From an uncultured bacterium (GTDB lineage Bacteria; CAYUVA01), in NCBI GenBank assembly GCA_964448115.1, contig CAYUVA010000029.1:7125-56265 (forward strand): 49,141 nucleotides of DNA. The letters are read 5' to 3'. Under the pieces are notes generated by a model. The model ran no database searches and had not been told where the DNA came from. It saw nothing but the letters and a program-made list of their open reading frames with translations. Position 1 is the first letter of the stretch. Each line of letters begins with the position of its first letter. This document shows, in pieces, positions 10,218-37,818 of this stretch. A program made the position numbers and the translations under genes.

Positions 10218-10601
10218 TATTCTTATGTTTTATACTTAGAGGAAAAATACCCTTCCTTTTTCATTTTGATTGCAGATAATAGCATAATTATTGAATAATT
10301 TTATAATTGTTGAACAGTTTTAATGATATTTTCTGCTATCCGAATAACTGAATCAACTTTTTGCTAAATATTTGAAAAATATAATTTATCCTCATAATCA
10401 GCTTTATTTATATTTTTTCTTAACTCTTATGAGGTTTTTTGATATATTTCTGAAATCTACTGTAATTTCTTCATTCTATTTTTATTTATGTCATCTCGTT
10501 ACTGGTGTCAAACTTAAAATAACTTTGATCATCTGAGAGTTCATCGACTTCCCCCTTCCCTTTTCTGCTTGGGTGTGGTATGAGTGATTTTTCGAGTTGA
10601 C

Positions 10602-10630
10602 TTGACAATGAAGATATACTCAAATAATAA
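10602..10630 (+). promoter_or_regulatory. Putative sigma70-type promoter for dsrA.
   Basis: TTGACA at 10602-10607, a 17-bp spacer, then TAATAA at 10625-10630. The dsrA RBS AAGGAG lies at 10675-10680, and all of this sits inside a 467-bp AT-rich leader. Confidence 0.3.
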
Positions 10631-10686
10631 TGTTTGTTGTCTCTAGCGAGTGAATAGTTGAAGCACCTTCTAGAAAAGGAGAGAAA

Positions 10687-11901
10687 ATGGGCGACAAGAA
10701 ATACCCGCTAATTGAAGAACTGGAAAAGGGACCCTGGCCGAGCTTCGTTAAAGAAATCAAGAAAGCTGCGGCGAAAAACGAGATGGCTGAGGATCTCTTA
10801 GGGCAGTTGGAGACATCCTACGAGGAGAAGATAGGACACTGGAAGCACGGCGGAATCGTCGGCGTACTCGGTTACGGTGGTGGAGTAATCGGAAGATATT
10901 CCGATATCCCAGATAAGTACCCCAAGATATCACACTTCCACACCATGCGTATCAACATGCCCTCTGGTTGGTTCTACACCAGCGAGAAGCTCAGAACGAT
11001 ATGCGACATCTGGGATCGCCACGGCTCAGGCATAACTAACATGCACGGCTCTACAGGCGACATCATCTTTTTGGGCACTGTAACCGATGAGCTTGAGCCG
11101 ACCTTTGCAGATCTGACCAAAGCTGGATTCGACCTGGGTGGGTCTGGTTCGGTGCTGCGGACTCCCAGTGCCTGCAACGGCATGGCTCGCTGCGAGTGGG
11201 CTTGCTACGACACGCTCAAGGTCTGCAATGCGCTAACTCATGAGTACCAGGATGAGCTTCACCGCCCCATGTTCCCCTACAAGTTCAAGTTCAAGTTTGC
11301 CGGCTGCCCCAATGACTGCGTGGCTTCCATAGCCAGAGCGGATCTTTCGGTTATCGGCACCTGGCGAGATAACATCCAGATAGATCAGGACGCAGTAGCT
11401 GAATATGCCGCAACCGGCATGGATATTCAGGGCGATATCATCGAGAGATGCCCAACCAGATGTATGAAGTTCGACGGCAAGAAGATCCAGATTGACAACC
11501 GCTACTGTAACCGCTGTATGCACTGCATCAACAAGATGCCCAAGGCTCTAAAGCCTGGCAAAGACAGAGGCGCCTGCATCCTGCTCGGTGGCAAGGCTCC
11601 TATCATGGAAGGCGCGCTGCTTTCCTCGGTGCTGATTCCATTTATGAAGATCGAACCTCCCTACGACGAATTGAAGGATCTCATCGATCGCATCTGGGAG
11701 TTGTGGAGCGAGGAAGGTAAAAACCGGGAGCGCGTTGGCGAATATATGCAGCGCATCGGACTAGGAAACTTCCTAGAGGAGATCGGCGTTGAACCTCACC
11801 CGGATATGGTAAACCACCCCAGGGAGAACCCCTACATCTTCTTCGAGGAGTACCTCGTTGAGGATGATGAAGAAGAAGTTGAAGATGAAGAAGAAGAATA
11901 G
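10687..11901 (+). CDS. dsrA: Dissimilatory sulfite reductase alpha subunit.
   Basis: N-terminus [18 protein letters not shown] matches the DsrA consensus ...GPWPSFVSDIKQEAA. Also conserved: [48 protein letters not shown] and the ferredoxin-like CPTRCM...CNRCMHC. It ends in an unusual acidic tail, [13 protein letters not shown]. Confidence 0.95.
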
Positions 11902-11962
11902 AACAACCTGTTGGAAACAATGAAAGGTAACCATGAATTCAATCTTTCGGAGGTTAACATAA

Positions 11963-13036
11963 ATGGCTGAAGACAGAATCACCGATATTGGACCACCTAA
12001 TTACGAGGACTTTCTACCGCCGGTAATCAAGAAGAACTACGGCAAATGGAAGTACCATGAGATCATAAAAGCCGGGGTTATGTTCCATGAGGCAGAAAGT
12101 GGAGATCGGATCTACACGGTAAGAGCTGCTACTCCAAGATTGGCTGCAACCGCGACAATTAGGCTATTCGCCGACCTTGCTGACAAGTATTGCGACGGAT
12201 ACCTGCGATGGACCAGCCGCAACAATGTCGAGTTTCTACTTACCAATCCGGATAACATCGATCCCCTGATCGAGGATCTCCAGAAGGAAGGTTACCTGGT
12301 CGGCGGTATGGGCAGGGCTATCTCCAATATCGTGCATACCCAGGGCTGGGTACACTGCCACTCGGCAGCCACAGATGCATCTGGTATCGTCAAGTCGGTA
12401 ATGGATGAGCTGGCTGAATACTTTACTACTAAGGATCTTCCAGGCAAACTGAGAATTGCCTTGGCTTGCTGCCTGAACATGTGCGGCGCAGTGCATTGCT
12501 CGGATATAGCCATCTTGGGTGTTCACAGAAGACCACCGACCATCCTGCACGACACTCTGCGCAAGCTGTGCGAGATCCCGACCACCATCGCCTCCTGCCC
12601 GACAGGTGCTATTCGGACGGCAACGGTAAACGGGCAACCGAGCGTCGAAGTTGAGGAGGATCTCTGCATGTTCTGTGCGAACTGCTATACGGTCTGCCCC
12701 TCCATGCCTCTTAACGATCCGCTCAACGATGGTCTGTCAATCTGGGTTGGTGGCAAGGTCTCCAATGCAAGGAGCGCTCCCAAGTTCTCCAAGCTGGCAA
12801 TTCCTTATATTCCAAATAATCCACCGAGGTGGCCCGAGGTGGTTGATGCTGTAAAGAAAATCGTCGAGGTCTGGCTGAAGAATGCCAAGAAGGATGAAAG
12901 ACTCGGTGAGCTTATCGATAGGATCGGCTGGACAAGGTTCTTCAAAATGGCTGATATCGAGTTCACCAAGTATCATATCGATGATTTCAAGTTTGCTGGT
13001 ACAACCTACAAGAAGACCACCCAACTATTCTACTAG
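11963..13036 (+). CDS. dsrB: Dissimilatory sulfite reductase beta subunit.
   Basis: Conserved DsrB motifs: [68 protein letters not shown]. The GGAGG RBS lies 8 bp upstream. Confidence 0.95.
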
Positions 13037-13048
13037 GGGTGAAAAGCT

Positions 13049-13300
13049 ATGGGTAAACCTACAATTGATGAATTGGCTGATGCCATGTATGAGATGGTCA
13101 AGGAAGCCACTGGGCGCAAGAAGCTCAAGCCTATGGATCTTATAAAGGCAGCCAAAGATAAGTTTGGCGATGAGAATGTTGATAAGAAAGATGGCAAAAA
13201 AGCTATAAACAAGCTCATCGATGAAGGTCGTTGCGTTTACACCTACTTTGGGGGCAGCTTCGTAGAACTGCCTCACAAGGACGGCGCTGCCAACGAATAG
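13049..13300 (+). CDS. dsrD: DsrD, the small winged-helix protein of reductive dsr operons.
   Basis: 83-aa Lys-rich protein immediately after dsrB. The C-terminal YTYFGGSF pattern resembles the DsrD ...YWSSGSTTMY... region. Its position matches the usual dsrABD order. Confidence 0.8.
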   Translation: MGKPTIDELADAMYEMVKEATGRKKLKPMDLIKAAKDKFGDENVDKKDGKKAINKLIDEGRCVYTYFGGSFVELPHKDGAANE

Positions 13301-13356
13301 ATCGCCAGGCCATCGTTTGAAATAAGAACAACATAAGCCGATTCAGTTAAAATTAT

Positions 13357-13399
13357 GGAACAGGGAACTTTTCATAGTATAGTTCTCTGTTCCTTTTTT
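13357..13399 (+). terminator. Putative intrinsic terminator/attenuator between dsrD and dsrN.
   Basis: GGAACAGGGAACT...AGTTCTCTGTTCC forms a stem of about 12 bp with one mismatch and an 11-nt loop. It is followed directly by TTTTTTC. Confidence 0.55.
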
Positions 13400-13404
13400 C
13401 TTGT

Positions 13405-14871
13405 ATGAACCAAGGCAATAAATTAAAGAAAAACTCTAAGGATATAGAATTATCTTCCGATGAAAGCAGATATAATTCAGCACCTCTCCCCTACCCTCGC
13501 ATTGTGATAGCTGGGGCGAGTGGAGATTCGGGCAAGACCCTGATTTCACTCGGATTGTTATCTTATTTCTTAAGTCAAGGCATGTCCCTGGCTGCCTTCA
13601 AGAAGGGACCAGATTACATAGACTCAGCCTGGCTCGGAGAGGCTATACAGGGCAAGGCACGCAATCTCGACCCCTTTCTTATGGGGGAAGATTCCCTGCT
13701 TAGTTGCTTCTTGACAAGCGCATCAGGGAAGGAATTGAGCATTATCGAGGGAAATCGTGGTTTATGCGATGGTGTTGATGTGGAGGGGAGCTTCAGCACT
13801 GCCAAGCTCGCCAGATTGCTGGATGCACCGGTTATCCTGATAGTAAATGTAACCAAGATGACGCGGACATGCGCAGCATTGGTGCTCGGCTGCAAGATGA
13901 TGGAACCGGAGGTAAACATTGCCGGGGTGATCCTTAACAAGGTAGCCGGAACCAGGCATGGCAGGGTGGCAGGTCAAGCTATCGAATCTTACACCGGCAT
14001 CCCTATAGTCGGCAGCGTGCCCAAATTATCCGAAGACTTTCTTCCCAGCAGGCACCTCGGCTTGATAATGCCTCGTGAGCATCCCAGGTTCGGCGATATG
14101 ATACATCGAATCGAGTCGAAGATCATCGATCACATCAATGTAGATCGCATCTTAGAGATAGCTCGCTCTGCAAGCGTAATGCAATCGGTTCCAGTTGACC
14201 TGTTTGGTGAGGCAGTTGCTGATGAAAAGTCGGTGCGCATCGCCTTTTTTTGCGACCAGGCTTTTTCTTTTTATTATCCTGAAAATCTGGAAGCACTCGT
14301 GCATCACGGCGCTGAGCTGGTGCCCGTGTCCTCCATAGATGCTGATCAGCTACCGAATGATATCCAGGGGCTTTATATAGGCGGTGGATTTCCTGAGCTT
14401 CTCGCCGAGCGCGTCTCCTCCAACCAATCGTTGCGTCGTTCTGTAAAGGATGCTGCCGAGGCAGGCTTACCTATCTATGCGGAATGTGGCGGGATGGTGT
14501 ATCTTTCTGATGAGCTTTTCTGGGAGGAGCGACAGTTCCCCATGGCAGGCGTGCTTCCAATCAGCATTCGTATGCACCCTAAGCCGCAAGGGCACGGGTA
14601 TTCAGAGATTTTGGTGGATAGAGACAACCCGTTTTTCAACATGGGCGAACGCCTTTTGGGGCATGAATTTCACTACTCGCGCATAGTATCGGGATTCGAG
14701 AAGATATACACGGTCTATAAACTAAAGAAAGGAACCGGCTGCTACGAGATGCGCGATGGGATTACATACAAGAATGTCCTGGCAAGCTATGTGCATCTTC
14801 ATGCTCTTGGATCAAGCAGTTGGGCGCCCGGTTTCGTACAAGCAGCAGTTCGATATAAAAAAGGATCATAA
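13405..14871 (+). CDS. dsrN: DsrN, a CbiA/CobB-like siroheme amidase (cobyrinic acid a,c-diamide synthase homologue).
   Basis: P-loop region IVIAGASGDSGKT plus a C-terminal glutamine amidotransferase domain (YAECGGMVYL, GHEFHYS). It lies directly downstream of dsrABD. It has an N-terminal extension of about 30 aa. Confidence 0.8.
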   Translation: MNQGNKLKKNSKDIELSSDESRYNSAPLPYPRIVIAGASGDSGKTLISLGLLSYFLSQGMSLAAFKKGPDYIDSAWLGEAIQGKARNLDPFLMGEDSLLSCFLTSASGKELSIIEGNRGLCDGVDVEGSFSTAKLARLLDAPVILIVNVTKMTRTCAALVLGCKMMEPEVNIAGVILNKVAGTRHGRVAGQAIESYTGIPIVGSVPKLSEDFLPSRHLGLIMPREHPRFGDMIHRIESKIIDHINVDRILEIARSASVMQSVPVDLFGEAVADEKSVRIAFFCDQAFSFYYPENLEALVHHGAELVPVSSIDADQLPNDIQGLYIGGGFPELLAERVSSNQSLRRSVKDAAEAGLPIYAECGGMVYLSDELFWEERQFPMAGVLPISIRMHPKPQGHGYSEILVDRDNPFFNMGERLLGHEFHYSRIVSGFEKIYTVYKLKKGTGCYEMRDGITYKNVLASYVHLHALGSSSWAPGFVQAAVRYKKGS

Positions 14872-23999: not shown

Positions 24000-25163
24000 A
24001 TGAAGGGATTAGTCTTGGACGCTAAATGGGATCCTAAGCCGGACTATAAACTGAGCGATTTCGAGAGATCGACTGGAAAAGCGATAACTGGTTCGTCGGT
24101 TTGGAGAGATCCCAAGCTGGAGGTTAGGGAATGGGAGATGCCAAAGCCTGGCGATAACGATGTTTTAATAAAGGTCAAGGCTTGCGGGGTATGCGGCTCG
24201 GATATGCATTTCTACGAGACCGATGAGGATAACTACATACTCTATCCTGGCTTGACGAAATTCCCGACCATACTGGGACACGAGTTTTCTGGACAAGTAG
24301 TTGAGGTCGGCAAGAGGGTGAATGACCTGAAGGTTGGCGACATGGTTACGGTCGAGGAGATGATGTGGTGCGGGCGCTGCAAGCCTTGTAGAGCGGGATT
24401 CCCCAATCACTGTACCAACCTCGAGGAGCTTGGATTCACCATCCCCGGCGCTGATGCCGAGTATATTGCGGTTGATGCCAAGTACTGCTGGAAGCTCGAT
24501 GAGCTGAAAAGGCAGTATTCGGATGATGAGACCATATACGAGGTTGGAGCTACCGTGGAGCCAACCTCTGTGGCTTATAACAGCATTTTCGTTCGCGGGC
24601 AGGGATTTCAACCGGGGGCTTATTTCGTGGTTTTTGGAGTTGGACCTATCGGGCTTGCTGCTATTCAATTGGCTAGATCCGCTGGTGCCAGTTTGATCAT
24701 CGCCTTCGAGGTATCAAAGGGAAGACTGGAATTGGCAAGAAAGCTGGGTGTTGACTATGCCTTCCATCCGGATGAGATAGATACAAGTCCTGGCCAGGTG
24801 GTCATGGACTTGACCCACGGCGAGGGCGCTGATTTCATCCTGGAGGCTGCTGGCGTCCCTGAGTTTTGCATCCTTGAAGCCGAGAAATGCCTGGCGGTCA
24901 ATGGTAAAATATCACAGATTGGGAGGGCGGCAGATCGTGTGCCCATGTACATCGAGGTGCTCCAGGTGCGCAGGGGGCAGCTTTTCGGCTCACAGGGACA
25001 CTCGGGACATAATATCTTTCCCAATGTCATTCGCATGATGGCTGCCGGATTGGTTGATAATACTAAGATAATCACAGCCAGATTCCCCTTGGATAAGGCA
25101 GTGGATGCAATTGCCCAATCTACCTCCCGCCAGGACGGCAAGATCATCATTAAACCGGAGTAA
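24000..25163 (+). CDS. Zn-dependent alcohol/polyol dehydrogenase (MDR superfamily).
   Basis: Catalytic Zn motif CGVCGSDMH...GHEFSG, structural Zn Cys cluster CGRCKPCRAGFPNHC, NAD(P) fold GVGPIGLAAIQLA. The AAGGAG RBS is present. Confidence 0.85.
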   Translation: MKGLVLDAKWDPKPDYKLSDFERSTGKAITGSSVWRDPKLEVREWEMPKPGDNDVLIKVKACGVCGSDMHFYETDEDNYILYPGLTKFPTILGHEFSGQVVEVGKRVNDLKVGDMVTVEEMMWCGRCKPCRAGFPNHCTNLEELGFTIPGADAEYIAVDAKYCWKLDELKRQYSDDETIYEVGATVEPTSVAYNSIFVRGQGFQPGAYFVVFGVGPIGLAAIQLARSAGASLIIAFEVSKGRLELARKLGVDYAFHPDEIDTSPGQVVMDLTHGEGADFILEAAGVPEFCILEAEKCLAVNGKISQIGRAADRVPMYIEVLQVRRGQLFGSQGHSGHNIFPNVIRMMAAGLVDNTKIITARFPLDKAVDAIAQSTSRQDGKIIIKPE

Positions 25164-25166
25164 ATT

Positions 25167-26195
25167 ATGGTCGAAAAAGAATTGATGTCAGCCGCTGTAT
25201 TCGAGGATGAAGGAAAGCTGGCATTAAAAGAGATACCAATCCCTCGCATCACCAAGCCTGACCATGTCCTTCTCAAGGTTGAGGCGGCAAGTATCTGTGG
25301 AACCGATATAAAGATCCTGCAAGTGCCACCATTGCATCCAGCAGAAAAGGGTATAGTTCTGGGGCATGAGTATGTCGGCACCGTGGTCGATAAGGGAGAG
25401 GCTTGCCAGCATCTAAAGGTCGGCGACCTGGCAGCGGTCGATCCTAATATCACCTGTGGATACTGCTTTTTCTGTCGTAACGGACAGCCAAATATGTGCC
25501 TGAACATGACCACACTGGGGATATTCAAGGACGGTGGATTCGCCGAGTATAGCGTTGCACCGGCCAAGGCACTGCACAAGGTGAAGAAGGACATTCCCCC
25601 TGAGCTTGCCGTCTATGCTGAGCCTCTTTCCTGTATCGTAAATGCCTTTGATAAGCTGGACTTCAAGATCGGCTCCAAGGTATTGGTGCTCGGAGCCGGT
25701 CCCATCGGGCTTTACTTCATCATGTTCTTCGTCAAGTCATTCTCCTCGCTGGTTGCGGTATCCGAGCCAAATAACTATCGAAGAAACTATGCGGAAAAAC
25801 TGGGTGCGAATCTGGTCATCGATCCCAATGAGGGCGATCTTTTCAAGATCTCCGAGGAACATACCAAGGTCGGCTTCGATATAGTGGTCGATGCGGTGGG
25901 CACATTGCTCCCCCAAGCGCTGAAGCTGGTGAGAAAAGGGGGAACTATCCTTATGTTTGGAATGAACGATCAGGAGCAATCCACCATTGCACCATACTAT
26001 CTGACAAGGTATGAGATAAAGCTATTGGGCACTTTTATCTCCAACTTTTCCTTTGCCAGGGCAATTAGTCTGATCGAATCGCGGAGATTACCTCTCGATA
26101 AGGTTATAACTCACCGCATCCCGCTATCCTCGATCAGCGATGGTATCAAGTGGATGGAAAGCGGCGAGGCGCTCAAGATCATCGTAAAACCTTAG
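25167..26195 (+). CDS. Zn-dependent alcohol dehydrogenase, threonine/sorbitol dehydrogenase-like.
   Basis: CGTDIKI...GHEYVGTV, CGYCFFCRNGQPNMC, GAGPIGLYFIMF. It starts 4 bp after the previous ADH stop. Confidence 0.85.
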   Translation: MVEKELMSAAVFEDEGKLALKEIPIPRITKPDHVLLKVEAASICGTDIKILQVPPLHPAEKGIVLGHEYVGTVVDKGEACQHLKVGDLAAVDPNITCGYCFFCRNGQPNMCLNMTTLGIFKDGGFAEYSVAPAKALHKVKKDIPPELAVYAEPLSCIVNAFDKLDFKIGSKVLVLGAGPIGLYFIMFFVKSFSSLVAVSEPNNYRRNYAEKLGANLVIDPNEGDLFKISEEHTKVGFDIVVDAVGTLLPQALKLVRKGGTILMFGMNDQEQSTIAPYYLTRYEIKLLGTFISNFSFARAISLIESRRLPLDKVITHRIPLSSISDGIKWMESGEALKIIVKP

Positions 26196-27647: not shown

Positions 27648-29477
27648 TCACGGTTTATCCAAGATGATCGGCTTTAGGCGCACAGAATGCTTTTTACCAT
27701 CAAAGTCTATATCTGCCAGCAGTGCGACCTTGCCGGGAAACAGCCCCATCGGCGCAGCCCTTCCTTTCTCGATCCGTGCATAGATGACACTGCTATCATA
27801 AAACGGGCTGTTGGCTGCAAGGGCGCCGTTTAGTATCACTTGGCGTGCTGATACATTAACTCCTGCCTGCGTATCTATATGAACCACGGCATTTTCGATA
27901 CCCTGGCGTTTAACATGAGTTGGAACCAGGCGCAAAAGCTCGGTCTCCTGCATCCATGCCGAGGCTACTCTGGGCACATAAGCCACCATGCTCTCCACTA
28001 TTAAAAAAGTTACCAGCAACGATGAGAAGTTGAAGCGGCGATCGGGAGTTTGTTTATCATCGGAAACTGATCCTGACAGATAGATCAAACCCCTCGCTGC
28101 CAATATTATCATAAATGGTATGGTTGGATAATAGTATCTCGCTCCCACCAGCATAAGCGCGCTATGCGCCCAGTACAGCATGTAAAAGATAGCAAAGCTC
28201 ACATTAAACGAAAACAGAAATATCTCCTTTCTGCCCCGATATGGGGAAAGTAGAGTTAATATCGGCAAAAGCAGGCTAACAAAAGGAAAACCAAGCAGAT
28301 TAACTGACATGACATAAAGATTTAGCCAGAGATTATATAATCCATCAAGGGGAGTATGCCCCTTATGGATTCCCTCCTTGATATCCATGACTCCATAAGA
28401 TCGTGGTTGATCGGTAAAGCCGATATTGTCAAGCCCCTGCTCGACGGTGTATGGGTGGCGGTGCATGTCGCCGGTAACCTGGTAATTATAGAAATAACCG
28501 AGCGCCAGCAGGATTATGTATCCGGCGATCATGAAAGGCATAATGGGCGCAACCTGGCTGAATGCCCGAAAGAGCTTGTAAATAAGGAGAAATAATATCG
28601 GAACGAGGATGAGCACCGCATCGAACGGCCTGGTCAGGGCTGCAAAGCCGAAGCTAAAGCCGGCGATCACCCCCCATAGGTACCGATGCCTGCCGTAAAA
28701 AGCTCGCAATATGCTGTAAACGAAAAGCACACCCCAAAAAGCAGTCGCAGTGTGCGCCAGGTAAGTCCCGTTCATAAACAGCGCAAACGGTGAGACCATA
28801 TAGAGAAACTGGGCAATAACTGCGGTTGTATGATCGAAAAGAAGCCTTGCCAGCAGGTAGATTACAAATCCTAGCAATGCGCCAAGAAGAGGATTGATCA
28901 ACCAAGGTGCACCGACAAGTATCCCTGGAACAAGCAAAAGCGGGTATCCAGGAAAGAACCTGGAAAACAGGCGTCCATTATAATAGACCGTATGTAACAC
29001 CTTGACATGAGGGATCAACTGCGCTGGAACCGATGAATAAAATTTACCATTAGCCAAAATCTTCGCCTGGTAAAGATTGCAGATTCCATCATCGAAGTGC
29101 GGAATTCCACCTATTATGATAATGGAAACGATGAGATAGAGCAAAAAACTGACTCCGAGCAATACATAAGGTGTACCTTTGTAAGCGAGTAATGACCTTG
29201 CAAAACTGCCGATTGCCAGTGCTATCTTAGGGGATTTTCGTGTTATCAACCAAATCACGGCTATTAGAAGGGGGTAAATGACTAGAAGCCTCAACAGTTC
29301 TCTTGATGCAGAGGCGGTAACCACATCAGGAAACAGCGGATCGAACCTGCTAGGGAGGATCTTGTTTACATGTAGCAGACTAAAGGACTGATCGAGTTGT
29401 GGTTTACATTGTGCCCCAGTTACAAATAGACTAAGAGCTAACAGTATGGCAAAGTGCATCGACAATCCCTTAATCAC
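27648..29477 (-). CDS. Polytopic membrane protein, GT39/ArnT-like glycosyltransferase candidate.
   Basis: About 12 predicted TM helices throughout, an N-terminal signal-like MHFAILLALSLFVTGAQC, and a large C-terminal soluble domain. The family assignment is tentative. Confidence 0.45.
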   Translation of the reverse strand: MIKGLSMHFAILLALSLFVTGAQCKPQLDQSFSLLHVNKILPSRFDPLFPDVVTASASRELLRLLVIYPLLIAVIWLITRKSPKIALAIGSFARSLLAYKGTPYVLLGVSFLLYLIVSIIIIGGIPHFDDGICNLYQAKILANGKFYSSVPAQLIPHVKVLHTVYYNGRLFSRFFPGYPLLLVPGILVGAPWLINPLLGALLGFVIYLLARLLFDHTTAVIAQFLYMVSPFALFMNGTYLAHTATAFWGVLFVYSILRAFYGRHRYLWGVIAGFSFGFAALTRPFDAVLILVPILFLLIYKLFRAFSQVAPIMPFMIAGYIILLALGYFYNYQVTGDMHRHPYTVEQGLDNIGFTDQPRSYGVMDIKEGIHKGHTPLDGLYNLWLNLYVMSVNLLGFPFVSLLLPILTLLSPYRGRKEIFLFSFNVSFAIFYMLYWAHSALMLVGARYYYPTIPFMIILAARGLIYLSGSVSDDKQTPDRRFNFSSLLVTFLIVESMVAYVPRVASAWMQETELLRLVPTHVKRQGIENAVVHIDTQAGVNVSARQVILNGALAANSPFYDSSVIYARIEKGRAAPMGLFPGKVALLADIDFDGKKHSVRLKPIILDKP

Positions 29478-29536: not shown

Positions 29537-31594
29537 CTAGTTAGGGTTCACATCGGTCGCACCGTCGGCAGGGATTGGATTGCTCGGCTTATGGGGCGGA
29601 TTATTGCCATACTGGGCTGACTGTACATCTATTGGTGTATAGATCATGCCAATATGCTCAGCAAGCGAATAGCTCGGTTCCCCAAAGGTTATGATATTAG
29701 TAGGCTCAACATCTCGTAGTCGAACAGCCCCTCGGTTATTTTTAGTTAACTTCGGCAGGGACAACGCAACCATTTTTTGATAGAAGAATGATTTAATATC
29801 TGCGATCAGACGGCTGATTCTGCTTGGTTTGTGTATGATCTGTATGTTCTGTTGCTCATCATCAGTGGCTGAATTTGCATAGAATGGGACCACGAGATAT
29901 GGCCAGGGAGAGCTGACCGCGCCCTCTATATCCTTAGCCAACAACTCCAGGTTGTATTTTCCTACGGGTGCACCGGGGGAAATCGGCGCCTGGAATTGCC
30001 AAATAGAGTTAGCTGGGTCCACTAATGTCAACTTAACGCCAGTGGGAACACCCTGGTAAAGTATCTCAACCTCGCTGACCACGCCCATGCCCATGCCGGG
30101 GTGATCGGTAGCATAGGCGAGCAAGGTCATGATTCCTCCATCGGCATTAGTGAGACGGGTGTTCATATACCCGGCGATATTCACTATCGGCGGTAGATTG
30201 CCCATCGGTGGCGTTGAGGTCGGCGTCATAGTAGGGGTGGGGGTCGCAGGCGGTGGCGCGCCCCAGGTAGTGAAACGCCAGACATCGCCGCTGGTGCAAT
30301 CGCCGTGGTTATCGCAGGCGAGCACCTGCCAGTAATAGGTTGTGTTAGAGTTCATCTTGCCCGGATACCAGTAACGATTGGTCGTGTCATTAACGACCCG
30401 GCTTGTGGGCGGATTAACATTAGCCTCGAAGTAAACATCGTAATAGACTATATCCCCTGCGTCAGGATCCCCCCCATCCCAGCGCAGGTAGGTTTTGTTG
30501 GGGTCGAAAGTGGGGGTCGGAGTCGGTGTTTTTGTCGGAGTCCTGCCTCCTGGAGTGGGGGTATAGGTCGGGTTGTTCCTGTCCAGTGCATCGATTGCGC
30601 TCAGCACATCATCTCTTAGCCTGGTTCCGCTTGGACCAGAGTAAGCATGATCACCCAGGATATAGTACTGTCCCCCATCGAGGTAGAATATAGGTCCACC
30701 GCTCATCCCTCCATAGCTAGTGCCGCGATAATAGAGCTTGTAGTTGTCCGCGTACCATATATTATCCTGGTTCTCGTACATCTCGTTGCCGCTGAAGCCG
30801 GTCTCTGCTGGGTAGCCGGTAACCCGAACCGTCTTGCCGAAGTACCAGGTTACATTGTTTACAGCGTGCCCCATGTTTCCGACGCCACTTGAGCTGCCCA
30901 AGGCTACCGCTCCCCAGTCGTAGCGCCAGTCGTGGCTAGTTCTCCATCCATTAGGGACGGTTAGTGCAACGCTGGCAAATTGACCGAATGGTTGCTGATT
31001 GCCGTTCAAGCCAGGAATTACGATGACTTGATCCGCCCAGCGCCAGTTGCCGGAGCCTTGCGGAACCTCGGAGTATATGCAATGCCCGGCGGTGAGAAGC
31101 AGCCTGTCCTTCATAATAAACGAGCCGGAGCAGACATACCAGGTGCTGCCGTAGCGCATCAGCAGCTTGCAGATAGTCTTGTATGGATAAACCGTTGTGT
31201 TGTTGATCTTGTAGAAGCCCTTGGCATCCTCGTTCATGCCATCATAGATCAATTCTGATCGCTGGATAGGCGGGCAATCCATCGGCTCCAGGGTGTGATA
31301 GACCGGCTGCTCGAATGACTCATCAGCCCAGGGAACCTCGGTTACCGAGACCATTGGCATCGGCTTGGCTGACAGGATGATCTCCTCATCGATGCACTCG
31401 CAAGGCTCAAGTACCCATTGATCACCTGGGTCATAGCCCGGATAAACGATCTCGACATCCATGCCGAAAACTCGGATTGTCATCGCGAAAATCACAAACA
31501 TCGACAAGGAGATCATTTGTGCTACTTTCGTGAAAGGCAAGCCTCTTTGTAAACATCTAAAAGCGAGGAAAGCTATCGATTTCATGTAAGACAC
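29537..31594 (-). CDS. Secreted trypsin-like (S1) serine protease. It has Pro/Thr linkers, an Ig/FN3-like region and the same C-terminal domain as the 806-aa propeller protein.
   Basis: His active-site motif LLTAGHC and Ser active-site motif GMSGGP. Linkers TPTPGGRTPTKTPTPTPTF and PPPATPTPTMTPTSTPP. Domain ...AGYMNTRL...ILYQGVPTGVKL...SPWPYLVV. Confidence 0.8.
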   Translation of the reverse strand: MSYMKSIAFLAFRCLQRGLPFTKVAQMISLSMFVIFAMTIRVFGMDVEIVYPGYDPGDQWVLEPCECIDEEIILSAKPMPMVSVTEVPWADESFEQPVYHTLEPMDCPPIQRSELIYDGMNEDAKGFYKINNTTVYPYKTICKLLMRYGSTWYVCSGSFIMKDRLLLTAGHCIYSEVPQGSGNWRWADQVIVIPGLNGNQQPFGQFASVALTVPNGWRTSHDWRYDWGAVALGSSSGVGNMGHAVNNVTWYFGKTVRVTGYPAETGFSGNEMYENQDNIWYADNYKLYYRGTSYGGMSGGPIFYLDGGQYYILGDHAYSGPSGTRLRDDVLSAIDALDRNNPTYTPTPGGRTPTKTPTPTPTFDPNKTYLRWDGGDPDAGDIVYYDVYFEANVNPPTSRVVNDTTNRYWYPGKMNSNTTYYWQVLACDNHGDCTSGDVWRFTTWGAPPPATPTPTMTPTSTPPMGNLPPIVNIAGYMNTRLTNADGGIMTLLAYATDHPGMGMGVVSEVEILYQGVPTGVKLTLVDPANSIWQFQAPISPGAPVGKYNLELLAKDIEGAVSSPWPYLVVPFYANSATDDEQQNIQIIHKPSRISRLIADIKSFFYQKMVALSLPKLTKNNRGAVRLRDVEPTNIITFGEPSYSLAEHIGMIYTPIDVQSAQYGNNPPHKPSNPIPADGATDVNPN

Positions 31595-31828
31595 CTTTGA
31601 CTCAAAGATTGATTTTGTTTGATATTGTACATAGTTATATATACTTCCAAATTATTAAGATTTCAAGCAAAAGCGAACTTTTATTGACATTTAGATCAAA
31701 AGGTTATGAAATTGTGATCGAAAATACTGACAGGTGCTTCCTGAACTTAACACTAAAGACAAAAGTCTAGGGCTTTTCACTTAAGGGTCTAAAATTGGTC
31801 TTTTAGGGAAAATACGCGCTCACCCCAG

Positions 31829-31906
31829 CCCTCTCCCAGAGAGAGGGCGTAGGAACTGGAAAGGGTGATCCCATCCCTTCTCTCTGGGAGAGGGTTAGGG
31901 AGAGGG
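31829..31906. repeat. GC-rich twin palindromic repeat element (REP/MITE-like) upstream of the pduS-like gene.
   Basis: CCCTCTC-CCAGA-GAGAGGG at 31829-31847 and CCCTTCTCTCTGGGAGAGGG(TTAGGGAGAGGG) at 31875-31906. Both sit in an otherwise AT-rich 367-bp intergenic region. Confidence 0.5.
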
Positions 31907-31961: not shown

Positions 31962-33275
31962 ATGGTTGATGATCTTGTCGAAAAAGTGATAGGAGCGGGC
32001 GTAATCGGAGCGGGCGGAGCCGGCTTTCCCGCGCATATCAAGCTCGATTGCAAGGTCGATACTGTAATCGCCAACGGCGCCGAGTGCGAACCGCTGCTCT
32101 ACAGCGACCAGCAGATCATGCACAAAAATGCCGATGAAGTGGTGGCTGGACTGCACCTGGTGATGAAGCAGGTAAAAGCGAAAAAGGGATTTATCGCCCT
32201 CAAAGCCAAATACAAGGCATCTCTTCAAGCCATAAAAAAGGTGGCAGCTAAATACGATGATATCGAGATCGCCCTCCTAGAGGACTACTATCCAGTCGGC
32301 GATGAGCAGATACTTGCTTATGAGGTTACCAGCAGGCTCACTCCCCAGGGCGGAATCCCTATCGATATCGGAGTGCTGGTCTGCAATGTCCAATCTCTTG
32401 TGCAGATACATAGCGCAGCCAATGGAACTCATGTTACCAGCCGTATGGTTACTATAATCGGCGATATTCCTAGACCGGCGGTCATCGAGGTTGCAATTGG
32501 TACCACCTTCGAGGAACTTCTGGCAGGAACTGGCAACCAGCTTGACGATGATGGCAAAGTCATACTTGAGGGTGGCATTATGATGGGCACGGTGCGAGAG
32601 AACCTCGATGAGCCGGTGAAACGAACCACCACCGGCATCATCGTGCTTCCCAAGGCTCACCCTGTGGTCATGGAGAAACTCCGCCACTGGCAGCGTGATA
32701 TAAACATCATGCGCAGCGCCTGCGCTCAATGCTATTATTGCAGCGAGGTTTGCTCAAGGCGCCTGCTGGGGCTTGAACTGGAGCCGCACAAGATAATGCA
32801 TTACATAGCCCTTGGCGATGAAAGGCACATCCCAGAGGGGATCTACAACTGCTCCGGCTGCGGATTATGCGGAATCTGGGCTTGCTATATGGGGCTTTCG
32901 CCATGGAAGGTGATCCAATACCTTAAACAAAAGATACCCTATGATGGGCACAAGATCCCCATCGATGCAGCTCATCCCAGCCGAAACCTGCGCAAGGTGC
33001 CTAGCTCGCGATTGAAGATTAGGCTGGGGATTGATAAATTCGACATCAAGCCGACTGTCCTGGAACCATTGCTGGAGCCTAAGCGAGTGCGTTTGAGCCT
33101 CGAGGAGCATATCGGGGCTGCCGCAGTACCCCTAGTTTCAATTGGAGATATGGTGCGAAAAGGTGATATAATCGCCGAACCACCCGCAGGTGAGATGGGA
33201 GCGGTGGTGATCGCCTCCATCACTGGAAAGGTTACAAAGATCAACGATTGCATCGAGATAATCAACCAGGAGTAA
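31962..33275 (+). CDS. PduS-like RnfC/NuoF-family Fe-S flavoprotein (BMC-associated cobalamin reductase-like oxidoreductase).
   Basis: GAGVIGAGGAGFPAHIKL...DTVIANGAECEPLL matches the PduS/RnfC N-terminus. Two 4Fe-4S motifs: CAQCYYCSEVCS and CSGCGLCGIWAC. A BMC shell gene follows directly. Confidence 0.8.
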   Translation: MVDDLVEKVIGAGVIGAGGAGFPAHIKLDCKVDTVIANGAECEPLLYSDQQIMHKNADEVVAGLHLVMKQVKAKKGFIALKAKYKASLQAIKKVAAKYDDIEIALLEDYYPVGDEQILAYEVTSRLTPQGGIPIDIGVLVCNVQSLVQIHSAANGTHVTSRMVTIIGDIPRPAVIEVAIGTTFEELLAGTGNQLDDDGKVILEGGIMMGTVRENLDEPVKRTTTGIIVLPKAHPVVMEKLRHWQRDINIMRSACAQCYYCSEVCSRRLLGLELEPHKIMHYIALGDERHIPEGIYNCSGCGLCGIWACYMGLSPWKVIQYLKQKIPYDGHKIPIDAAHPSRNLRKVPSSRLKIRLGIDKFDIKPTVLEPLLEPKRVRLSLEEHIGAAAVPLVSIGDMVRKGDIIAEPPAGEMGAVVIASITGKVTKINDCIEIINQE

Positions 33276-33279
33276 TAAA

Positions 33280-33828
33280 TTGGTACATGCCATCGGAATG
33301 CTGGAGTTGAGGAGCATCGCCAGGGGGATCGAGGCAACCGATGCTATGGTCAAGGCTGCACAGGTCTCCTTGCTGCGAAGTGCTCCCATCTGTTCCGGTA
33401 AGTACCTCATCCTGGTCGGAGGACTGGTCGCTGATGTGAAAAGCGCTATGGCTGATGGCGAGGAAGTAGCTGAATATAGCGTGGTCGATAAGCTGATCAT
33501 CCCCAATATCCACCAGGACATCTTCCCTGCCCTGACTTTCACCACCCAGATTGGAGAGATCGATGCTTTAGGGATCATCGAGGCATTCTCGGCATCATCG
33601 ACCATCATCGGCGCTGACCTGTCGGCAAAGGCAGCCAAGGTGCAACTGATACAGATAAGGCTAGCCAACGGCATCGGCGGCAAGGGATACTTCACTCTGA
33701 CCGGCGATGTTGGCGCAGTGCGGGCAGCGGTCTCGGCTGCATCGGAAGCGCTGTCAGCGCAAGGGATGCTGGTCGAGGCGGTGGTCATACCCCAGCCACA
33801 CCATGATATATCGCCTTTTTTAATATGA
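33280..33828 (+). CDS. BMC-T tandem-domain microcompartment shell protein, PduT-like.
   Basis: Two BMC (PF00936-type) domains: AIGMLELRSIARGIEATDAMVKAA...VVIPNIHQD and ALGIIEAFSASSTIIGADLSAKAA...GDVGAVRAAVSAASEA...VVIPQPHHD. Cys in APICSG is at the position of the PduT Fe-S ligand. Confidence 0.85.
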   Translation: MVHAIGMLELRSIARGIEATDAMVKAAQVSLLRSAPICSGKYLILVGGLVADVKSAMADGEEVAEYSVVDKLIIPNIHQDIFPALTFTTQIGEIDALGIIEAFSASSTIIGADLSAKAAKVQLIQIRLANGIGGKGYFTLTGDVGAVRAAVSAASEALSAQGMLVEAVVIPQPHHDISPFLI

Positions 33829-33854
33829 GGCATGGGGATTGATAGTCTTTGAAC

Positions 33855-34045
33855 CACAAAGACACAAAGGCACAAAGAAGAGGGTGATACCGTGATACCG
33901 AGCTACCGTGATACCGTGAATGAGGCTCTTTCCTCGCATCTTGCACCTCACCCCACTTTGCGTCTTTGCCTTTTTCCGTCTGTTTCCTTCCTTAATATTC
34001 TTTGCGTCTTTGCGTCTTTGCGTGATCCTCTTTCATCTCCCTTCA
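33855..34045. promoter_or_regulatory. Structured repeat-rich intergenic region between BMC-T and the vertex genes: an imperfect 23-bp inverted repeat, a GTGATACC triplet and CTTTGCGT direct repeats.
   Basis: CACAAAGACACAAAGGCACAAAG at 33855-33877 against the reverse complement of CTTTGCGTCTTTGCGTCTTTGCGTG at 33999-34023. GTGATACC occurs three times at 33884-33917. CTTTGCGTCTTTGCC at 33955-33969. Confidence 0.4.
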
Positions 34046-34057
34046 AACTAAAAAACT

Positions 34058-34363
34058 ATGCCGTTTTATCTAGCTAGAATCATTGGATGCCTGGTAGCGA
34101 CCCGAAAGGAGCCGGGCTTGGAGGGCAAGAAGCTGCTCCTCGTGCAGCCGATAGATGCCTCTGGCAAGGACAAAGGCACACCGATAGTCGCCACCGATGC
34201 AGTCGGCGCCGGCGTCGATGAGATCGTGATCATAGTCGATGGGGGCAAGGAGGCGGGTTTCGCCTTTTACCCGCAGCATGTCCCCTCAGATGCGAGCGTG
34301 GTCGGCATAGTTGATGATGTCTTCACCTTCAAACAGAATAATAAGCAGACAAAGGAGCCTTGA
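34058..34363 (+). CDS. BMC vertex pentamer protein (EutN/PduN/CcmL family, BMV).
   Basis: MPFYLARIIGCLVATRKEPGLEGKKLLLVQP...GAGVDEIVII matches the EutN consensus (.VIGTVVSTQK.P.L.G.KLLLVQ). Confidence 0.85.
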   Translation: MPFYLARIIGCLVATRKEPGLEGKKLLLVQPIDASGKDKGTPIVATDAVGAGVDEIVIIVDGGKEAGFAFYPQHVPSDASVVGIVDDVFTFKQNNKQTKEP

Positions 34364-34367
34364 TGTT

Positions 34368-34649
34368 ATGTTCATAGCCAAGGTCATCGGCAATGTAACC
34401 GCCACCCAGAAGCACTCTGCTTACAAGGGCAGAAAGCTGCTCCAGGTACAGCCGGTGGATCTATCAGGCGAGCCGATGGGGAGGGATTACCTGGCGATCG
34501 ACCTTGTGGATGCAGGGATCGGGGATACGGTTATTCTGACCATTGAAGGCTCATCGGCTATGTCAGCGTTGGGTGATCCTCATGCTCCAGCCAATGCCAT
34601 TATCATCGCGGTCGTGGATGAGATTGACATTTATGGTAATAATGAATAA
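34368..34649 (+). CDS. Second BMC vertex pentamer protein (EutN/PduN family). The start is trimmed to the internal Met preceded by an AAGGAG RBS.
   Basis: MFIAKVIGNVTATQKHSAYKGRKLLQVQPVD...DAGIGDTVIL. The track ORF starts at 34311, but that would overlap the upstream gene. AAGGAG lies at about 34354. Confidence 0.8.
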   Translation: MFIAKVIGNVTATQKHSAYKGRKLLQVQPVDLSGEPMGRDYLAIDLVDAGIGDTVILTIEGSSAMSALGDPHAPANAIIIAVVDEIDIYGNNE

Positions 34650-34664
34650 TATTATAATAATTAT

Positions 34665-36929
34665 TTAATAATTATTGCCAAATAATTTTTTAATTTCTTG
34701 TTCCATTTCATTAAATTCTTTCTCCGTTTCAACTTTCATTTCTTCTCTAGCTTCAATGAAAATTTTTATTAATTCTTTCTTAAAATCTTCTCTATTAAAT
34801 GCTTCTTCTAATTCTAAAATCATTTTATCAATTGTAAAGCCTAATACTATAGAACTTAAAGTGCCACCAACAATGGCGCCTGCTGCTGTCCCAGCTCCTG
34901 GAATAACAGACCCAATCCCACCTCCAATTAATGCAGCTAAACCTTTTCCCATGGCTTTCTTTCCTAAAATTTTTGTAAACGCCTTTGCGGCGGCTTTTAT
35001 TGTGCCTTTTGCTGCAATTTTTGATACTATTTTCTTTGTAATAATTGCCGTGAATATTCCGCCGGTTGCAGCACCACCTACACTAGCACCTATATTATAT
35101 TTCGTCATATTAAAATTTTCTAATGTAATTATTATATTTTCCATACTACGATCTACAATAATATCACGATTTGGATAGGAAATATCTATTTTATATTTTT
35201 TAACAATTTTCATTATATCTTTCTCATATTTGTTAATTAACTTATTTATTTTATTACAATATTCTATATATTTTTCATTATTTATTGCATCGATATTATG
35301 CTCTTTTAATTTTTCCTTAATAATATCTTTTAGTTTAGCTTCAATATATTCATTTAATTTACCTTGGAACATATTTATTATGCGCATATATTCTGCTGGC
35401 AAAGAGTAATACCAGTTTAAAAAAGGATCTATACCTTCTATCGCAATATCAAAAGTTTTATCTATAAATATATTTTTATGCTCTTGATATTTAAAATTAA
35501 TACGCTCAATTTCTTTTTCATAAAATTTATTTATCTTATTTATTTTATTAATACCATCTTGGTTAATATATATATCATTTCCATTTATAATAATTCTAAA
35601 AGCATGTTTTATTCCTTTTTCAATGTACTCTCTTTTTTCTTTAGAACTTTCGAAATATTTCCTGGTTTCCAACAGAAAATTTAATCCTCCCAACAAAGGA
35701 ATATAAATAAATATTACACTAAAAACTAAAAATAGCGTGCAGATAAAAATTTTATTTTTAGAAATAGGAGGTGGAATATCCTCGCGACCACGAGAAAATT
35801 CAAAGATTCTTCCATACTCATTCCAGGGTATAAGCAAAAATAAATATAAAAAACATGCAATACTAAAAAGCGGTAAATTAAATAAAAATATTATACCTAA
35901 TTTTAATAATATCCTCAATTTCTTTGTATCATTTTTATTCATGGATTGATACTTTATATGATTTTTAATAAAATTAATAGAATAATCTTCAATTGCAACC
36001 TTATAAGAATAAATGTATGAAATTTCTTTTATTAATTTCATAGAATGCATATTATCTACTAATTCTTTCTTTTTACTAATTACTTCTTCTAACGAATTAT
36101 ATGATGGAACTGGTTTTAGTATAGGGATAAAAATTACACATAATAAAGAAGCAATTATTGGAGTAAATCCCAGCGCCAAGGATATTGGATAATAATAAGA
36201 AAGATATTGCTGAGTTTCTTTTTTAACAAGCTTTCTAAAAATTGAAAAAACAAGGTAAAATATCGGTGCAACTGAAAAAATAATCAACCATTCATATATA
36301 TTATAAAATTGAAATTGTATTACTAATAGCCATGACATTGCATGTGCTATAATAATCCAAATAAATATTCTAAGAATGGTTCCAGAAAATAATCGATTTA
36401 TAATGCCTTCGGAATTAAAAGATTGTAGAAATTTCAACCGTCTAATTGTTGATCTATATAGCAAAGATAAAAATATTGATAAAGTTAGTAGGATAAGCAA
36501 TAAAATTTGAGAAATAATTGCAAATTCAGAATAAGTTAAATAAACTAAAATAATTATTAATAAGGTAAAAATAATTATCTTTACCATATATCTCCAAAAC
36601 AAATTACTTGTCTTAAATTCATTTACCATGGACTGTTTAGACTTCAAACTATCATTTGGTGCTAGTTTATCTTCATGCAAAATATTCCCTGTTTCATTGA
36701 TAGTTTGTTTTACTTGCTTTGTGGCTTTTTTTCTGAAAAATAGTATATATAAAATAATAAAAATAAATATCCATAATATAAATACCACATAAGGGGAAAA
36801 ATCAGAATTGTATAAAATAGCAAATGAAATGAATAATATAAAAGTAGAAACCAAACTTATGATTAATGCAATTATCGATAATAACAAAATCAATAAAAAA
36901 CTCTTAATCCATTTAAATAATTTTTTCAT
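34665..36929 (-). CDS. Large polytopic membrane protein encoded in an AT-rich (~25% GC) island. Its C-terminus is a Gly/Ala/Lys-rich glycine-zipper region.
   Basis: The ORF is 754 aa (2265 bp), rich in K/I/N/F/Y, with more than 10 hydrophobic segments. C-terminus GASVGGAATGGIFTAIITKK...GGGIGSVIPGAGTAAGAIVGGTLSSIVLG. The composition contrasts sharply with flanking DNA. Confidence 0.55.
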   Translation of the reverse strand: MKKLFKWIKSFLLILLLSIIALIISLVSTFILFISFAILYNSDFSPYVVFILWIFIFIILYILFFRKKATKQVKQTINETGNILHEDKLAPNDSLKSKQSMVNEFKTSNLFWRYMVKIIIFTLLIIILVYLTYSEFAIISQILLLILLTLSIFLSLLYRSTIRRLKFLQSFNSEGIINRLFSGTILRIFIWIIIAHAMSWLLVIQFQFYNIYEWLIIFSVAPIFYLVFSIFRKLVKKETQQYLSYYYPISLALGFTPIIASLLCVIFIPILKPVPSYNSLEEVISKKKELVDNMHSMKLIKEISYIYSYKVAIEDYSINFIKNHIKYQSMNKNDTKKLRILLKLGIIFLFNLPLFSIACFLYLFLLIPWNEYGRIFEFSRGREDIPPPISKNKIFICTLFLVFSVIFIYIPLLGGLNFLLETRKYFESSKEKREYIEKGIKHAFRIIINGNDIYINQDGINKINKINKFYEKEIERINFKYQEHKNIFIDKTFDIAIEGIDPFLNWYYSLPAEYMRIINMFQGKLNEYIEAKLKDIIKEKLKEHNIDAINNEKYIEYCNKINKLINKYEKDIMKIVKKYKIDISYPNRDIIVDRSMENIIITLENFNMTKYNIGASVGGAATGGIFTAIITKKIVSKIAAKGTIKAAAKAFTKILGKKAMGKGLAALIGGGIGSVIPGAGTAAGAIVGGTLSSIVLGFTIDKMILELEEAFNREDFKKELIKIFIEAREEMKVETEKEFNEMEQEIKKLFGNNY

Positions 36930-37818
36930 TCAAATTCTCCAAATAATATAACCATATCCAATTTTTCCCAACTTCCATCATCCAGATAAAAAATATGTTG
37001 TGTCATATAGTTACTGTGTTTTTTCCTACTTATCATCCTCATCATCCTCGAAAATATATTTGACCCTAATGTCAAATAACATCTTATCTTCAATAGAATT
37101 ATGATCCCATATCCTTTTTATAATGTCAATACCCTGAAGTTAACTGAAATGATCTGAGGTGAACTGCGCTGTAAGGTAAGAAATTAGGTTCTCACTATCC
37201 CTTTCTCTTAGCCATTAGTGTTATAGGTGAGCCGAAAAGCCTGGTCAACCCCATACTACCAAGCAAGCCCTCGACTCTGCGGGTGAAGCCAGGATTGTTC
37301 AGCTTGCGGTGCAGCTTGAAGGGGAGCACCAGCTCCTTGCTGTAGGCGATAAGCTCGAAGCCACAATCCTCGAGCAGCGGGATAATATTATTTCAATTCC
37401 GAGCAGGTTGCTTGAGAGCAAAAAATTCACAAAAAAGACACAAATGTTAAAACCTGAGGCGGCGAAGCTGCAATAAAGTATGCTAATCCAGCATGAAGAT
37501 TATGACGCGCGAAAGTGCGTTATCAGTTTAGTGAAGTAATCTAAGTTATGCCTCTGTTGGGTTTTATAATGTCTATACCTATTCCAAGCATTACCGGCAA
37601 AGGTATCAAGCTTCTGCTGTAGTGATAACTCGCACATTTATAAAATAGAGAATTCATGTTTTTCAATAACTTACAGCTCTCAAATGTCAAACTCGGGTGG
37701 AACATTTTACTAAATTACGGGATCGAGCGATCTATCGCGTGTAGTTTATTCGTATATTAAGAGACTCCAATAGACATCAAACGCCTAAATAGCTTTTTTA
37801 GGGCTGAAAAGCCCCTCA

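Follow-up and report, generated by a model that had tools for sequence, protein, structure and literature searches.

A four-gene MNdh/BMC-T^SE block with two vertex pentamers, a probable satellite of a dispersed microcompartment in an uncultured dsrAB-carrying bacterium

A contig of an uncultured bacterium (CAYUVA010000029.1 of assembly GCA_964448115.1, positions 7,125 to 56,265) carries a short block of bacterial microcompartment (BMC) genes. In the stretch of 49,141 nt that was analyzed, hereafter called the window, four adjacent plus-strand genes at 31962-34649 encode a homolog of the flavoprotein PduS (MNdh), a tandem-domain shell protein of the PduT type (BMC-T^SE), and two vertex pentamers (BMC-P). 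The original prediction, which was made from the DNA letters and the translated open reading frames (ORFs), had placed four plus-strand genes at these positions, and it had named a failure of the BMC-domain assignments in profile searches as grounds for giving it up. All four genes are present and intact, and all four proteins pass the profile thresholds. The genes and the two non-coding features of the region are as follows.

31962-33275, plus strand: MNdh (PduS homolog), 437 aa, with matches to Pfam PF01512, PF13534, and PF13375
33280-33828, plus strand: BMC-T^SE, a PduT-type single-layer tandem BMC-T, 182 aa, with two PF00936 domains
33829-34057, plus strand: spacer of 229 bp between BMC-T and pentamer 1, with repeats of 8-nt period and inverted arms of 23 nt
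34058-34363, plus strand: BMC-P pentamer 1, 101 aa, PF03319 (E = 4.8e-27), tentatively placed in clade B
34368-34649, plus strand: BMC-P pentamer 2, 93 aa, PF03319 (E = 4.2e-25), firmly placed in clade A by its sequence profile
31819-31904, plus strand: long imperfect hairpin with 36-nt arms and a 14-nt loop, 58 nt upstream of the MNdh start

Along the order MNdh, BMC-T, pentamer 1, and pentamer 2, the intergenic gaps are 4, 229, and 4 nt. The MNdh gene stops at 33275 and the BMC-T gene starts at 33280, so that the two are directly adjacent. The BMC-T start codon is a TTG with AGGAG 7 nt upstream; a public gene call for the same protein (P0244, 176 aa) begins at ATG 33298 and clips the first residues of the BMC domain, and TTG 33280 is the better start. 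The listed ORF of pentamer 2 spans 34311-34649. Its PF03319 match begins only at residue 20, and ATG 34368 has an AAGGAG 10 nt upstream; we therefore take the true gene to be 34368-34649, which starts 4 nt past the stop of pentamer 1.

The first gene encodes a PduS homolog with two 4Fe-4S motifs, as had been proposed. Pfam searches detected Complex1_51K (PF01512, E = 1.4e-42, residues 12-150), Fer4_17 (PF13534, E = 2.5e-9, residues 253-313), and RnfC_N (PF13375, E = 3e-12, residues 365-431), and an SLBB match at residues 162-190 scored 20.4 bits, below the cut-off of 27. The protein had been described as having an RnfC-like N-terminus; however, the RnfC barrel domain sits at the other end, at residues 365-431. 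The resulting order (PF01512, the sub-threshold SLBB, the 4Fe-4S dicluster, and a C-terminal PF13375) is that of the MNdh-type permutation, and a circular permutation placing the RnfC barrel at the C-terminus is a hallmark of PduS/MNdh (PMC11626177). The same permutation is seen against solved RnfC structures (E = 4e-45), where RnfC residues 27-83 align to MNdh 370-427 and RnfC residues 122-411 to MNdh 4-304. Eight cysteines form a CxxCxxCxxxC motif (C254, C257, C260, and C264) and a CxxCxxCxxxxC motif (C297, C300, C303, and C308). In an alignment of 37 sequences, consisting of the window protein and 36 homologs, MNdh keeps every invariant column; these include the eight cluster cysteines, G13, G16-P23 (GAGGAGFP), N38-P44 (NGAECEP), and Y110-E115. 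The nearest homologs are 43-46% identical and come from loci of the sugar-phosphate-utilization (SPU) BMC type (PMC8217296, PMC11585597). The gene product is thus predicted to be an NADH-oxidizing flavoprotein that binds FMN and two [4Fe-4S] clusters and ends in an RnfC-type barrel.

The second gene product contains two PF00936 domains (E = 5.8e-43) and conforms to the single-layer trimer type of about 180 aa. It matches PDB entry 3NWG (E = 1.2e-50) and the Citrobacter freundii PduT structure 3PAC (E = 5e-44) over its full length, and it also aligns end to end with 3N79. Its score against the NCBIfam equivalog TIGR02526 (eut_PduT) is 139 bits, below the cut-off of 250.3, and it is therefore a PduT-type homolog and not a strict EUT/PDU PduT equivalog. 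The cysteine of its APICSGKY segment, which had been noticed as standing at the position of the PduT Fe-S ligand, indeed falls in the same alignment column as the pore cysteine of the PduT motif ICPGK. BMC-T proteins encoded beside MNdh have been reported to share a universal CP(G/S)K motif that ligates a [4Fe-4S] cluster (PMC11626177). We considered CSGK in place of CPGK as a sign of an unusual pore and rejected this: among 69 MNdh-adjacent BMC-T proteins, the pore motif was ICPGK in 23, ICSGK in 19, VCPGK in 11, and VCAGK in 5, and the pore cysteine was present in 68. With 19 of 69 proteins carrying ICSGK, the serine variant is ordinary. The pore cysteine is a predicted [4Fe-4S] ligand within a Cys-x-Gly-Lys motif. 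In an integrity test over columns conserved in at least 80-90% of sequences, BMC-T deviated at none of 32. The two remaining gene products are EutN/PduN vertex proteins, as expected from the original prediction; both match PF03319, at 94.7 and 88.5 bits against a gathering score of 25, and they deviate at 2 of 16 and 1 of 16 conserved columns, where the median is 1.

The block stands apart from any other BMC gene in the window. Pfam scans of the 32 ORFs judged to be likely genes, which are nearly all the long ORFs of the 49 kb, revealed no other BMC gene. Six-frame tblastn of the window with the BMC-H hexamer, aldehyde dehydrogenase (AldDH), phosphotransacylase (PTAC), DeoC, RpiB, and a small SPU ORF returned no intact or degraded copies, and its matches were confined to the two BMC-T domains, the two pentamers, and a low-complexity Gly/Ala segment at 34842-35045. 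With the DeoC, RpiB, and AldDH of a related locus (L005, described below) as queries, tblastn against the whole window gave nothing better than E = 0.76. Both kinds of search therefore agree with the claim that BMC-H, AldDH, and PTAC are absent from the window. The BMC-H match at 34842-35045 (minus strand) was rejected, as it lies in the Gly/Ala-rich low-complexity part of a 754-aa membrane protein.

Between the locus and the ends of the window lie 31.9 kb upstream and 14.5 kb downstream. The surrounding genes encode a Ser/Thr kinase-TPR protein, a radical SAM enzyme, DnaE, DsrA and DsrB, a CobB-like protein, glycosyltransferases, a racemase, and dehydrogenases, and further RsmE, a Mur ligase, RsfS, NadD, MetH, FolD, a HAD hydrolase, and enolase. 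Since housekeeping genes flank both sides, the block is not the edge of a canonical locus. A complete canonical locus immediately next to it, a possibility raised together with the original prediction, is not there: the flanks within the window are free of BMC genes. Under the definition of Sutter et al. (2021), a satellite has shell genes without the combination of BMC-H and BMC-P and belongs to a genome with a main locus elsewhere; the locus agrees with the first point, there being no BMC-H in the window, and is a probable satellite with a predicted main locus. Under the scheme of Axen et al. (2014), a satellite has only PF00936 or only PF03319; both are present here, and the locus would be called 'satellite-like' or a candidate locus.

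To place this arrangement among its relatives, metagenome contigs were scanned with the MNdh alignment. The scan yielded 80 loci, which were annotated with custom hidden Markov models (HMMs) for BMC, EutN, AldDH, PTAC, DeoC, and RpiB; the locus counts that follow are for the 23 in which MNdh has flanks of 5 kb or more to each side. Hexamer, pentamer, and AldDH occurred together in 15 of these. Six had none of the three and carried MNdh and BMC-T alone, once with RpiB and DeoC in addition. One (L027) had the order MNdh-T-P-P-P (T, BMC-T; P, pentamer; H, hexamer) without hexamer or AldDH, and another had a hexamer and a pentamer without AldDH. Seven of the 23 loci thus lack both BMC-H and AldDH, which makes isolated MNdh/T modules common. 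Locus L085 (Ga0308390_1000693, ~9884-13500) has the order MNdh-BMC-T-RpiB-DeoC and lacks hexamer, pentamer, and AldDH genes over 10 kb to each side; it is itself a satellite that joins SPU signature enzymes to the redox module.

The exact order MNdh-T-P-P of the window was found inside the SPU-type locus L063 (H-P-AldDH-MNdh-T-P-P-DeoC) and inside L064. Among the closest MNdh relatives, those whose gene context was retrieved directly come from L003, L005, and L006, which are AldDH-MNdh-BMC-T loci, all with PTAC. A hexamer, RpiB, and DeoC are present in L005 and L006 as well, and genes for acetate kinase, triose-phosphate isomerase, and EutN in L005 and L003. By pentamer similarity the nearest analog is L027, which has T and P and no BMC-H on 13.5 kb. 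We rejected L027 as the same locus type, because its genes stand in an operon with a DeoR regulator, a CoA-transferase, dihydroxyacetone kinase, and PTAC.

The two pentamers carry further information on what the block once belonged to or still belongs to. A neighbor-joining tree of 89 pentamers, computed with no bootstrap, separates them by locus position. Where two pentamer genes stand in tandem, the first falls in clade B and the second in clade A; clade C holds the pentamer beside AldDH, and a fourth group consists of single pentamers just upstream of MNdh in one-pentamer loci. HMMs built for each clade assigned 54 of 55 members to the right clade in leave-one-out testing. By these profiles, pentamer 2 is firmly assigned to clade A (105.0 bits against 80.1 for the next clade), and it is the reciprocal best hit of L027_2500; pentamer 1 may belong to clade B. 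The window holds one clade-A pentamer, one clade-B pentamer, and no clade-C pentamer, the three clades being those of this tree and named independently of the published gray and orange clades. All other loci with a clade-A pentamer also carry B and C (11/11). According to the 'BMC-P triplet' rule, two pentamer clades always co-occur with a third member (PMC8217296). Because A and B always accompany C, a third pentamer is predicted elsewhere in the genome, together with a hexamer and AldDH. Two SPU-type loci (L010 and L011, on Ga0172366_10000305 and Ga0067045_1030524) have four pentamer genes; one of the four belongs to a separate deep clade that is common to L007-L009, L012, and L013 and lies beyond the triplet.

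Taken together, we consider it probable, at roughly 0.68, that the locus is a satellite, that is, a fragment, of a dispersed catabolic microcompartment (metabolosome). On this reading, other parts of the genome should encode the hexamer or hexamers, the third pentamer, AldDH, and the signature enzyme. The most likely origin of the block is an SPU-like locus with contiguous MNdh-T-P-P genes that was split or rearranged. The notion of a redox-shuttling shell module split from its cargo locus is therefore still the best-supported reading; its first half stands on the genes themselves, and its second half, the cargo locus elsewhere, we infer. The four genes give no sign of decay, since the motifs are kept, deviations at conserved columns are few, the genes are tightly packed, and ribosome-binding sites are in place.

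The way in which such a module would work can be modeled on the published MNdh/BMC-T^SE system, an NAD+-recycling electron conduit that often stands in satellite loci (Sutter et al., 2024, PMC11626177). MNdh inside the shell would oxidize the NADH made by an aldehyde dehydrogenase. By analogy with that system, electrons would leave FMN, cross the two [4Fe-4S] clusters of MNdh, and reach a further [4Fe-4S] cluster that the BMC-T^SE trimer binds through its three pore cysteines; an acceptor in the cytoplasm would then take them up, and NAD+ would be regenerated with no alcohol being formed. The two pentamers would be two of the three paralogs of the 'BMC-P triplet' and would cap shell vertices.

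The arrangement, which the original prediction described as a stand-alone module, is not an unusual one. In the published set, the MNdh/BMC-T^SE module is mostly a satellite in PVM (18/20) and ACI (5/7) BMCs and is read as an add-on for particular redox conditions, and the MNdh gene adjoins that of BMC-T^SE in 97% of cases (PMC11626177). Fission-derived satellites are known, for example in HO type I, where two BMC-P stand with an aldolase, and FRAG BMCs of candidate phyla have shell genes spread over up to six places and a pentamer triplet (Sutter et al., 2021, PMC8217296); the seven loci of our survey point the same way. The window module resembles the published one in its permuted RnfC barrel, FMN/NADH motifs, eight cysteines, and adjacent tandem BMC-T with a pore cysteine, and it resembles the PVM and ACI modules in standing away from hexamer and enzyme genes. 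It differs in having two BMC-P attached, in having CSGK and not CP(G/S)K, and in its deep-branching dsrAB host (PMC11626177). With SPU loci (L063/L064, L005, and L010) it shares its MNdh kin, the MNdh-T-P-P order of L063/L064, and the tandem-pentamer clades; unlike them, the window has no DeoC, RpiB, AldDH, PTAC, BMC-H, or third pentamer. The SPU type is defined by a DeoC-type aldolase (PF01791), RpiB (PF02502), and AldDH in the locus, and, as these enzymes are absent, the locus cannot be filed as SPU. Like FRAG and fission satellites, it has shell genes remote from enzymes and a probably split BMC-P triplet (PMC8217296); the FRAG type is recognized from a whole-genome inventory of shell proteins, and the window, which shows one fragment, is left without a type.

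Several observations pull away from the satellite interpretation. Of the 101 columns with a conservation of 90% or more, MNdh deviates at 11; none of the other 36 sequences deviates at as many, and the median is 2. Three of the changes (P206I, P265S, and H417I) are non-conservative, and most of the others are conservative. Part of this excess is expected, because the window protein stands outside the group formed by its own matches; the rest of the pattern could reflect a long branch or relaxed constraint. The clade B assignment of pentamer 1 is weak, with 90.6 bits against 83.2 for the next clade, a margin of 7 bits, and a tree that has no bootstrap. The foreign low-GC island directly behind the last stop codon would fit a rearrangement that truncated the locus. 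Finally, the main locus is predicted and not seen, the evidence covering the 49-kb window only.

The strongest competitor, which we nevertheless regard as unlikely, is that the block is a relic of a decayed SPU-like locus and that its four genes are non-functional leftovers or are being lost. In that case the enzymes, the hexamer, and the third pentamer would have disappeared, for instance in rearrangements linked to the neighboring foreign island. The window has no other BMC gene in 49 kb, and MNdh is the most deviant sequence of its alignment at conserved columns, both as expected of a relic. The surroundings fit as well. The compositionally foreign island that had been noted downstream is real, with a GC content of 0.17-0.29 over ~34650 to 37100 against ~0.5 in its flanks, and it starts abruptly, exactly at the stop of pentamer 2, where L063 continues with DeoC; upstream, a divergent gene for a secreted protease-like protein stands where related loci have AldDH. 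Against a relic speak the genes themselves, which are four full-length ORFs with ribosome-binding sites and with no frameshifts or stops seen. The shell proteins show no excess deviations (0/32, 2/16, and 1/16), all cofactor ligands are kept, and six-frame tblastn found no pseudogene traces of AldDH, DeoC, RpiB, or BMC-H in the window. Isolated MNdh/T modules are also common in other organisms, both in our survey and in the published one (PMC11626177).

It is considerably less likely that the block is the edge or a distant part of one large locus whose canonical part lies beyond the window or the contig. Some 7.1 kb of the contig, which is 56,265 nt long, do lie outside the window. However, the four genes are interior, with flanks of 31.9 and 14.5 kb that hold dsrAB, DnaE, glycosyltransferases, RsmE, the Mur ligase, MetH, FolD, and enolase. 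About 12 genes follow downstream and far more precede upstream, which is at or beyond the neighborhood of 12 ORFs by which a locus is defined (PMC8217296), and a locus that distant would still leave the block a satellite by the definition of Sutter et al. (2021).

Still lower we place a self-sufficient, hexamer-free mini-shell built from BMC-T^SE pseudohexamers and pentamers, with MNdh as its only or main enzyme. In favor of such a shell, a single-layer BMC-T trimer covers the same hexagonal area as a hexamer, but we know of no natural BMC type without BMC-H, and none was met in the literature consulted. The presence of both PF00936 and PF03319 means that the locus does not have an 'insufficient shell complement' (Axen et al., 2014), and L027 offers a second locus with T and P and no BMC-H on its 13.5 kb; on the other side, MNdh has been reported only in BMC types with an AldDH that supplies NADH (PMC11626177), pentamers of clades A and B come with a third pentamer in every other surveyed locus, and the lack of a hexamer nearby is accounted for more simply by a FRAG-type dispersal. 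It is just as improbable that the genome has no BMC-H or BMC-type AldDH at all, so that T and the pentamers form a mini-shell or MNdh and BMC-T^SE form a complex outside any compartment; the module would then be a stand-alone conduit from NADH to an acceptor, possibly feeding the Dsr sulfite-respiration chain.

That the host is a dissimilatory sulfite reducer, as had been suggested, is a reasonable assumption. DsrA scores 586 bits against an NCBIfam equivalog cut-off of 393, and DsrB scores 502 against 341.5. The two genes are part of a cluster at 10687-14871 in the order dsrA, dsrB, an 83-aa DsrD-like ORF (13049-13300), and a cobB-like gene, an arrangement that we take to be of the kind met in reductive-type sulfite and sulfate reducers. 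DnaE is at most 46% identical to any other sequence in the database, and its named matches are mixed (Omnitrophica, Desulfobacterota, Aminicenantia, and Vicinamibacteria); with so low an identity, the host lineage must be very poorly sampled. The statement that BMCs are poorly characterized in this lineage fits the host's own unsampled branch, but it is too broad for Dsr-type sulfite reducers as a whole, for the isethionate BMC of Bilophila wadsworthia has been isolated and a PduS/PduT-type electron shuttle proposed for it (PMC8667426). That GRM-type BMC also belongs to an organism with a Dsr-type sulfite reductase and has two EutN, a PduT-like shell protein, and a PduS-like RnfC homolog. In Bilophila, these genes share one operon with a glycyl-radical enzyme, AldDH, and a hexamer, whereas the window genes stand alone.

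The low-GC island holds one minus-strand gene (34665-36929). Its product, a multi-pass membrane protein of 754 aa, is rich in Gly/Ala in the C-terminal region and has no match in Pfam, NCBIfam, or PADLOC. Its homologs form 821 representative clusters, 121 of them at E <= 1e-30, and are mostly ~600 aa long. In five homologs that were scanned, no Pfam domain was found in the homologous region, and one member of 1057 aa had C-terminal Sel1 repeats only; judged by these matches, the protein belongs to a widespread uncharacterized family. Between the start of this gene and RsmE, ~890 bp (36930-37818) hold no ORF of at least 60 aa, and tblastn detected no remnant of a BMC gene there. Upstream of the BMC genes, on the minus strand, 29537-31594 encodes a divergent 685-aa protein with a weak trypsin-like domain and Pro/Thr-rich linkers, which is probably secreted, and beside it 27648-29477 (also minus strand) encodes a membrane glycosyltransferase of the PMT_2 type (ArnT-like); no link of either gene to the BMC genes was seen. 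Further away, 24000-26195 holds two tandem Zn-dependent dehydrogenases, the first of which is an equivalog of IolM scyllo-inosose 3-dehydrogenase (548 bits against a cut-off of 450). Both were rejected as BMC cargo, the first being of the IolM type and neither having an extension that resembles an encapsulation peptide.

Two non-coding elements accompany the block. The hairpin at 31819-31904 is the strongest inverted repeat in the window, where it is unique; it lies in a divergent intergenic region of 368 bp, its arms are 81% complementary, and its RNA fold has an energy of -74.7 kcal/mol (z = -4.5). Rfam gave sub-threshold matches only. From its position and fold, the hairpin may act in the leader of the BMC operon or in its regulation. 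The spacer at 33829-34057 contains repeats with a period of 8 nt (CACAAAG three times, GTGATACC three to four times, and CTTTGCGT three times) and inverted arms of 23 nt at 33857-33879 and 33998-34020, with a fold z of -2.05. No Rfam family was found in the spacer, nor did tblastn find there a homolog of the 76-77-aa ORF that trails BMC-T in L003 and L005.

The arrangement itself is already published, and the window adds a further probable example of an MNdh/BMC-T^SE satellite, in this case joined to two pentamer genes. The known range of BMC shell genes now includes an uncultured, very deep-branching lineage that carries dsrABD. The satellite reading can be checked, since it predicts a main locus in another part of the genome, with BMC-H, AldDH, and a pentamer of clade C. 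Should such a locus prove absent, the block would be the first natural hexamer-free assembly of the BMC type and would bear on the rules of shell assembly and on the engineering of minimal redox compartments.

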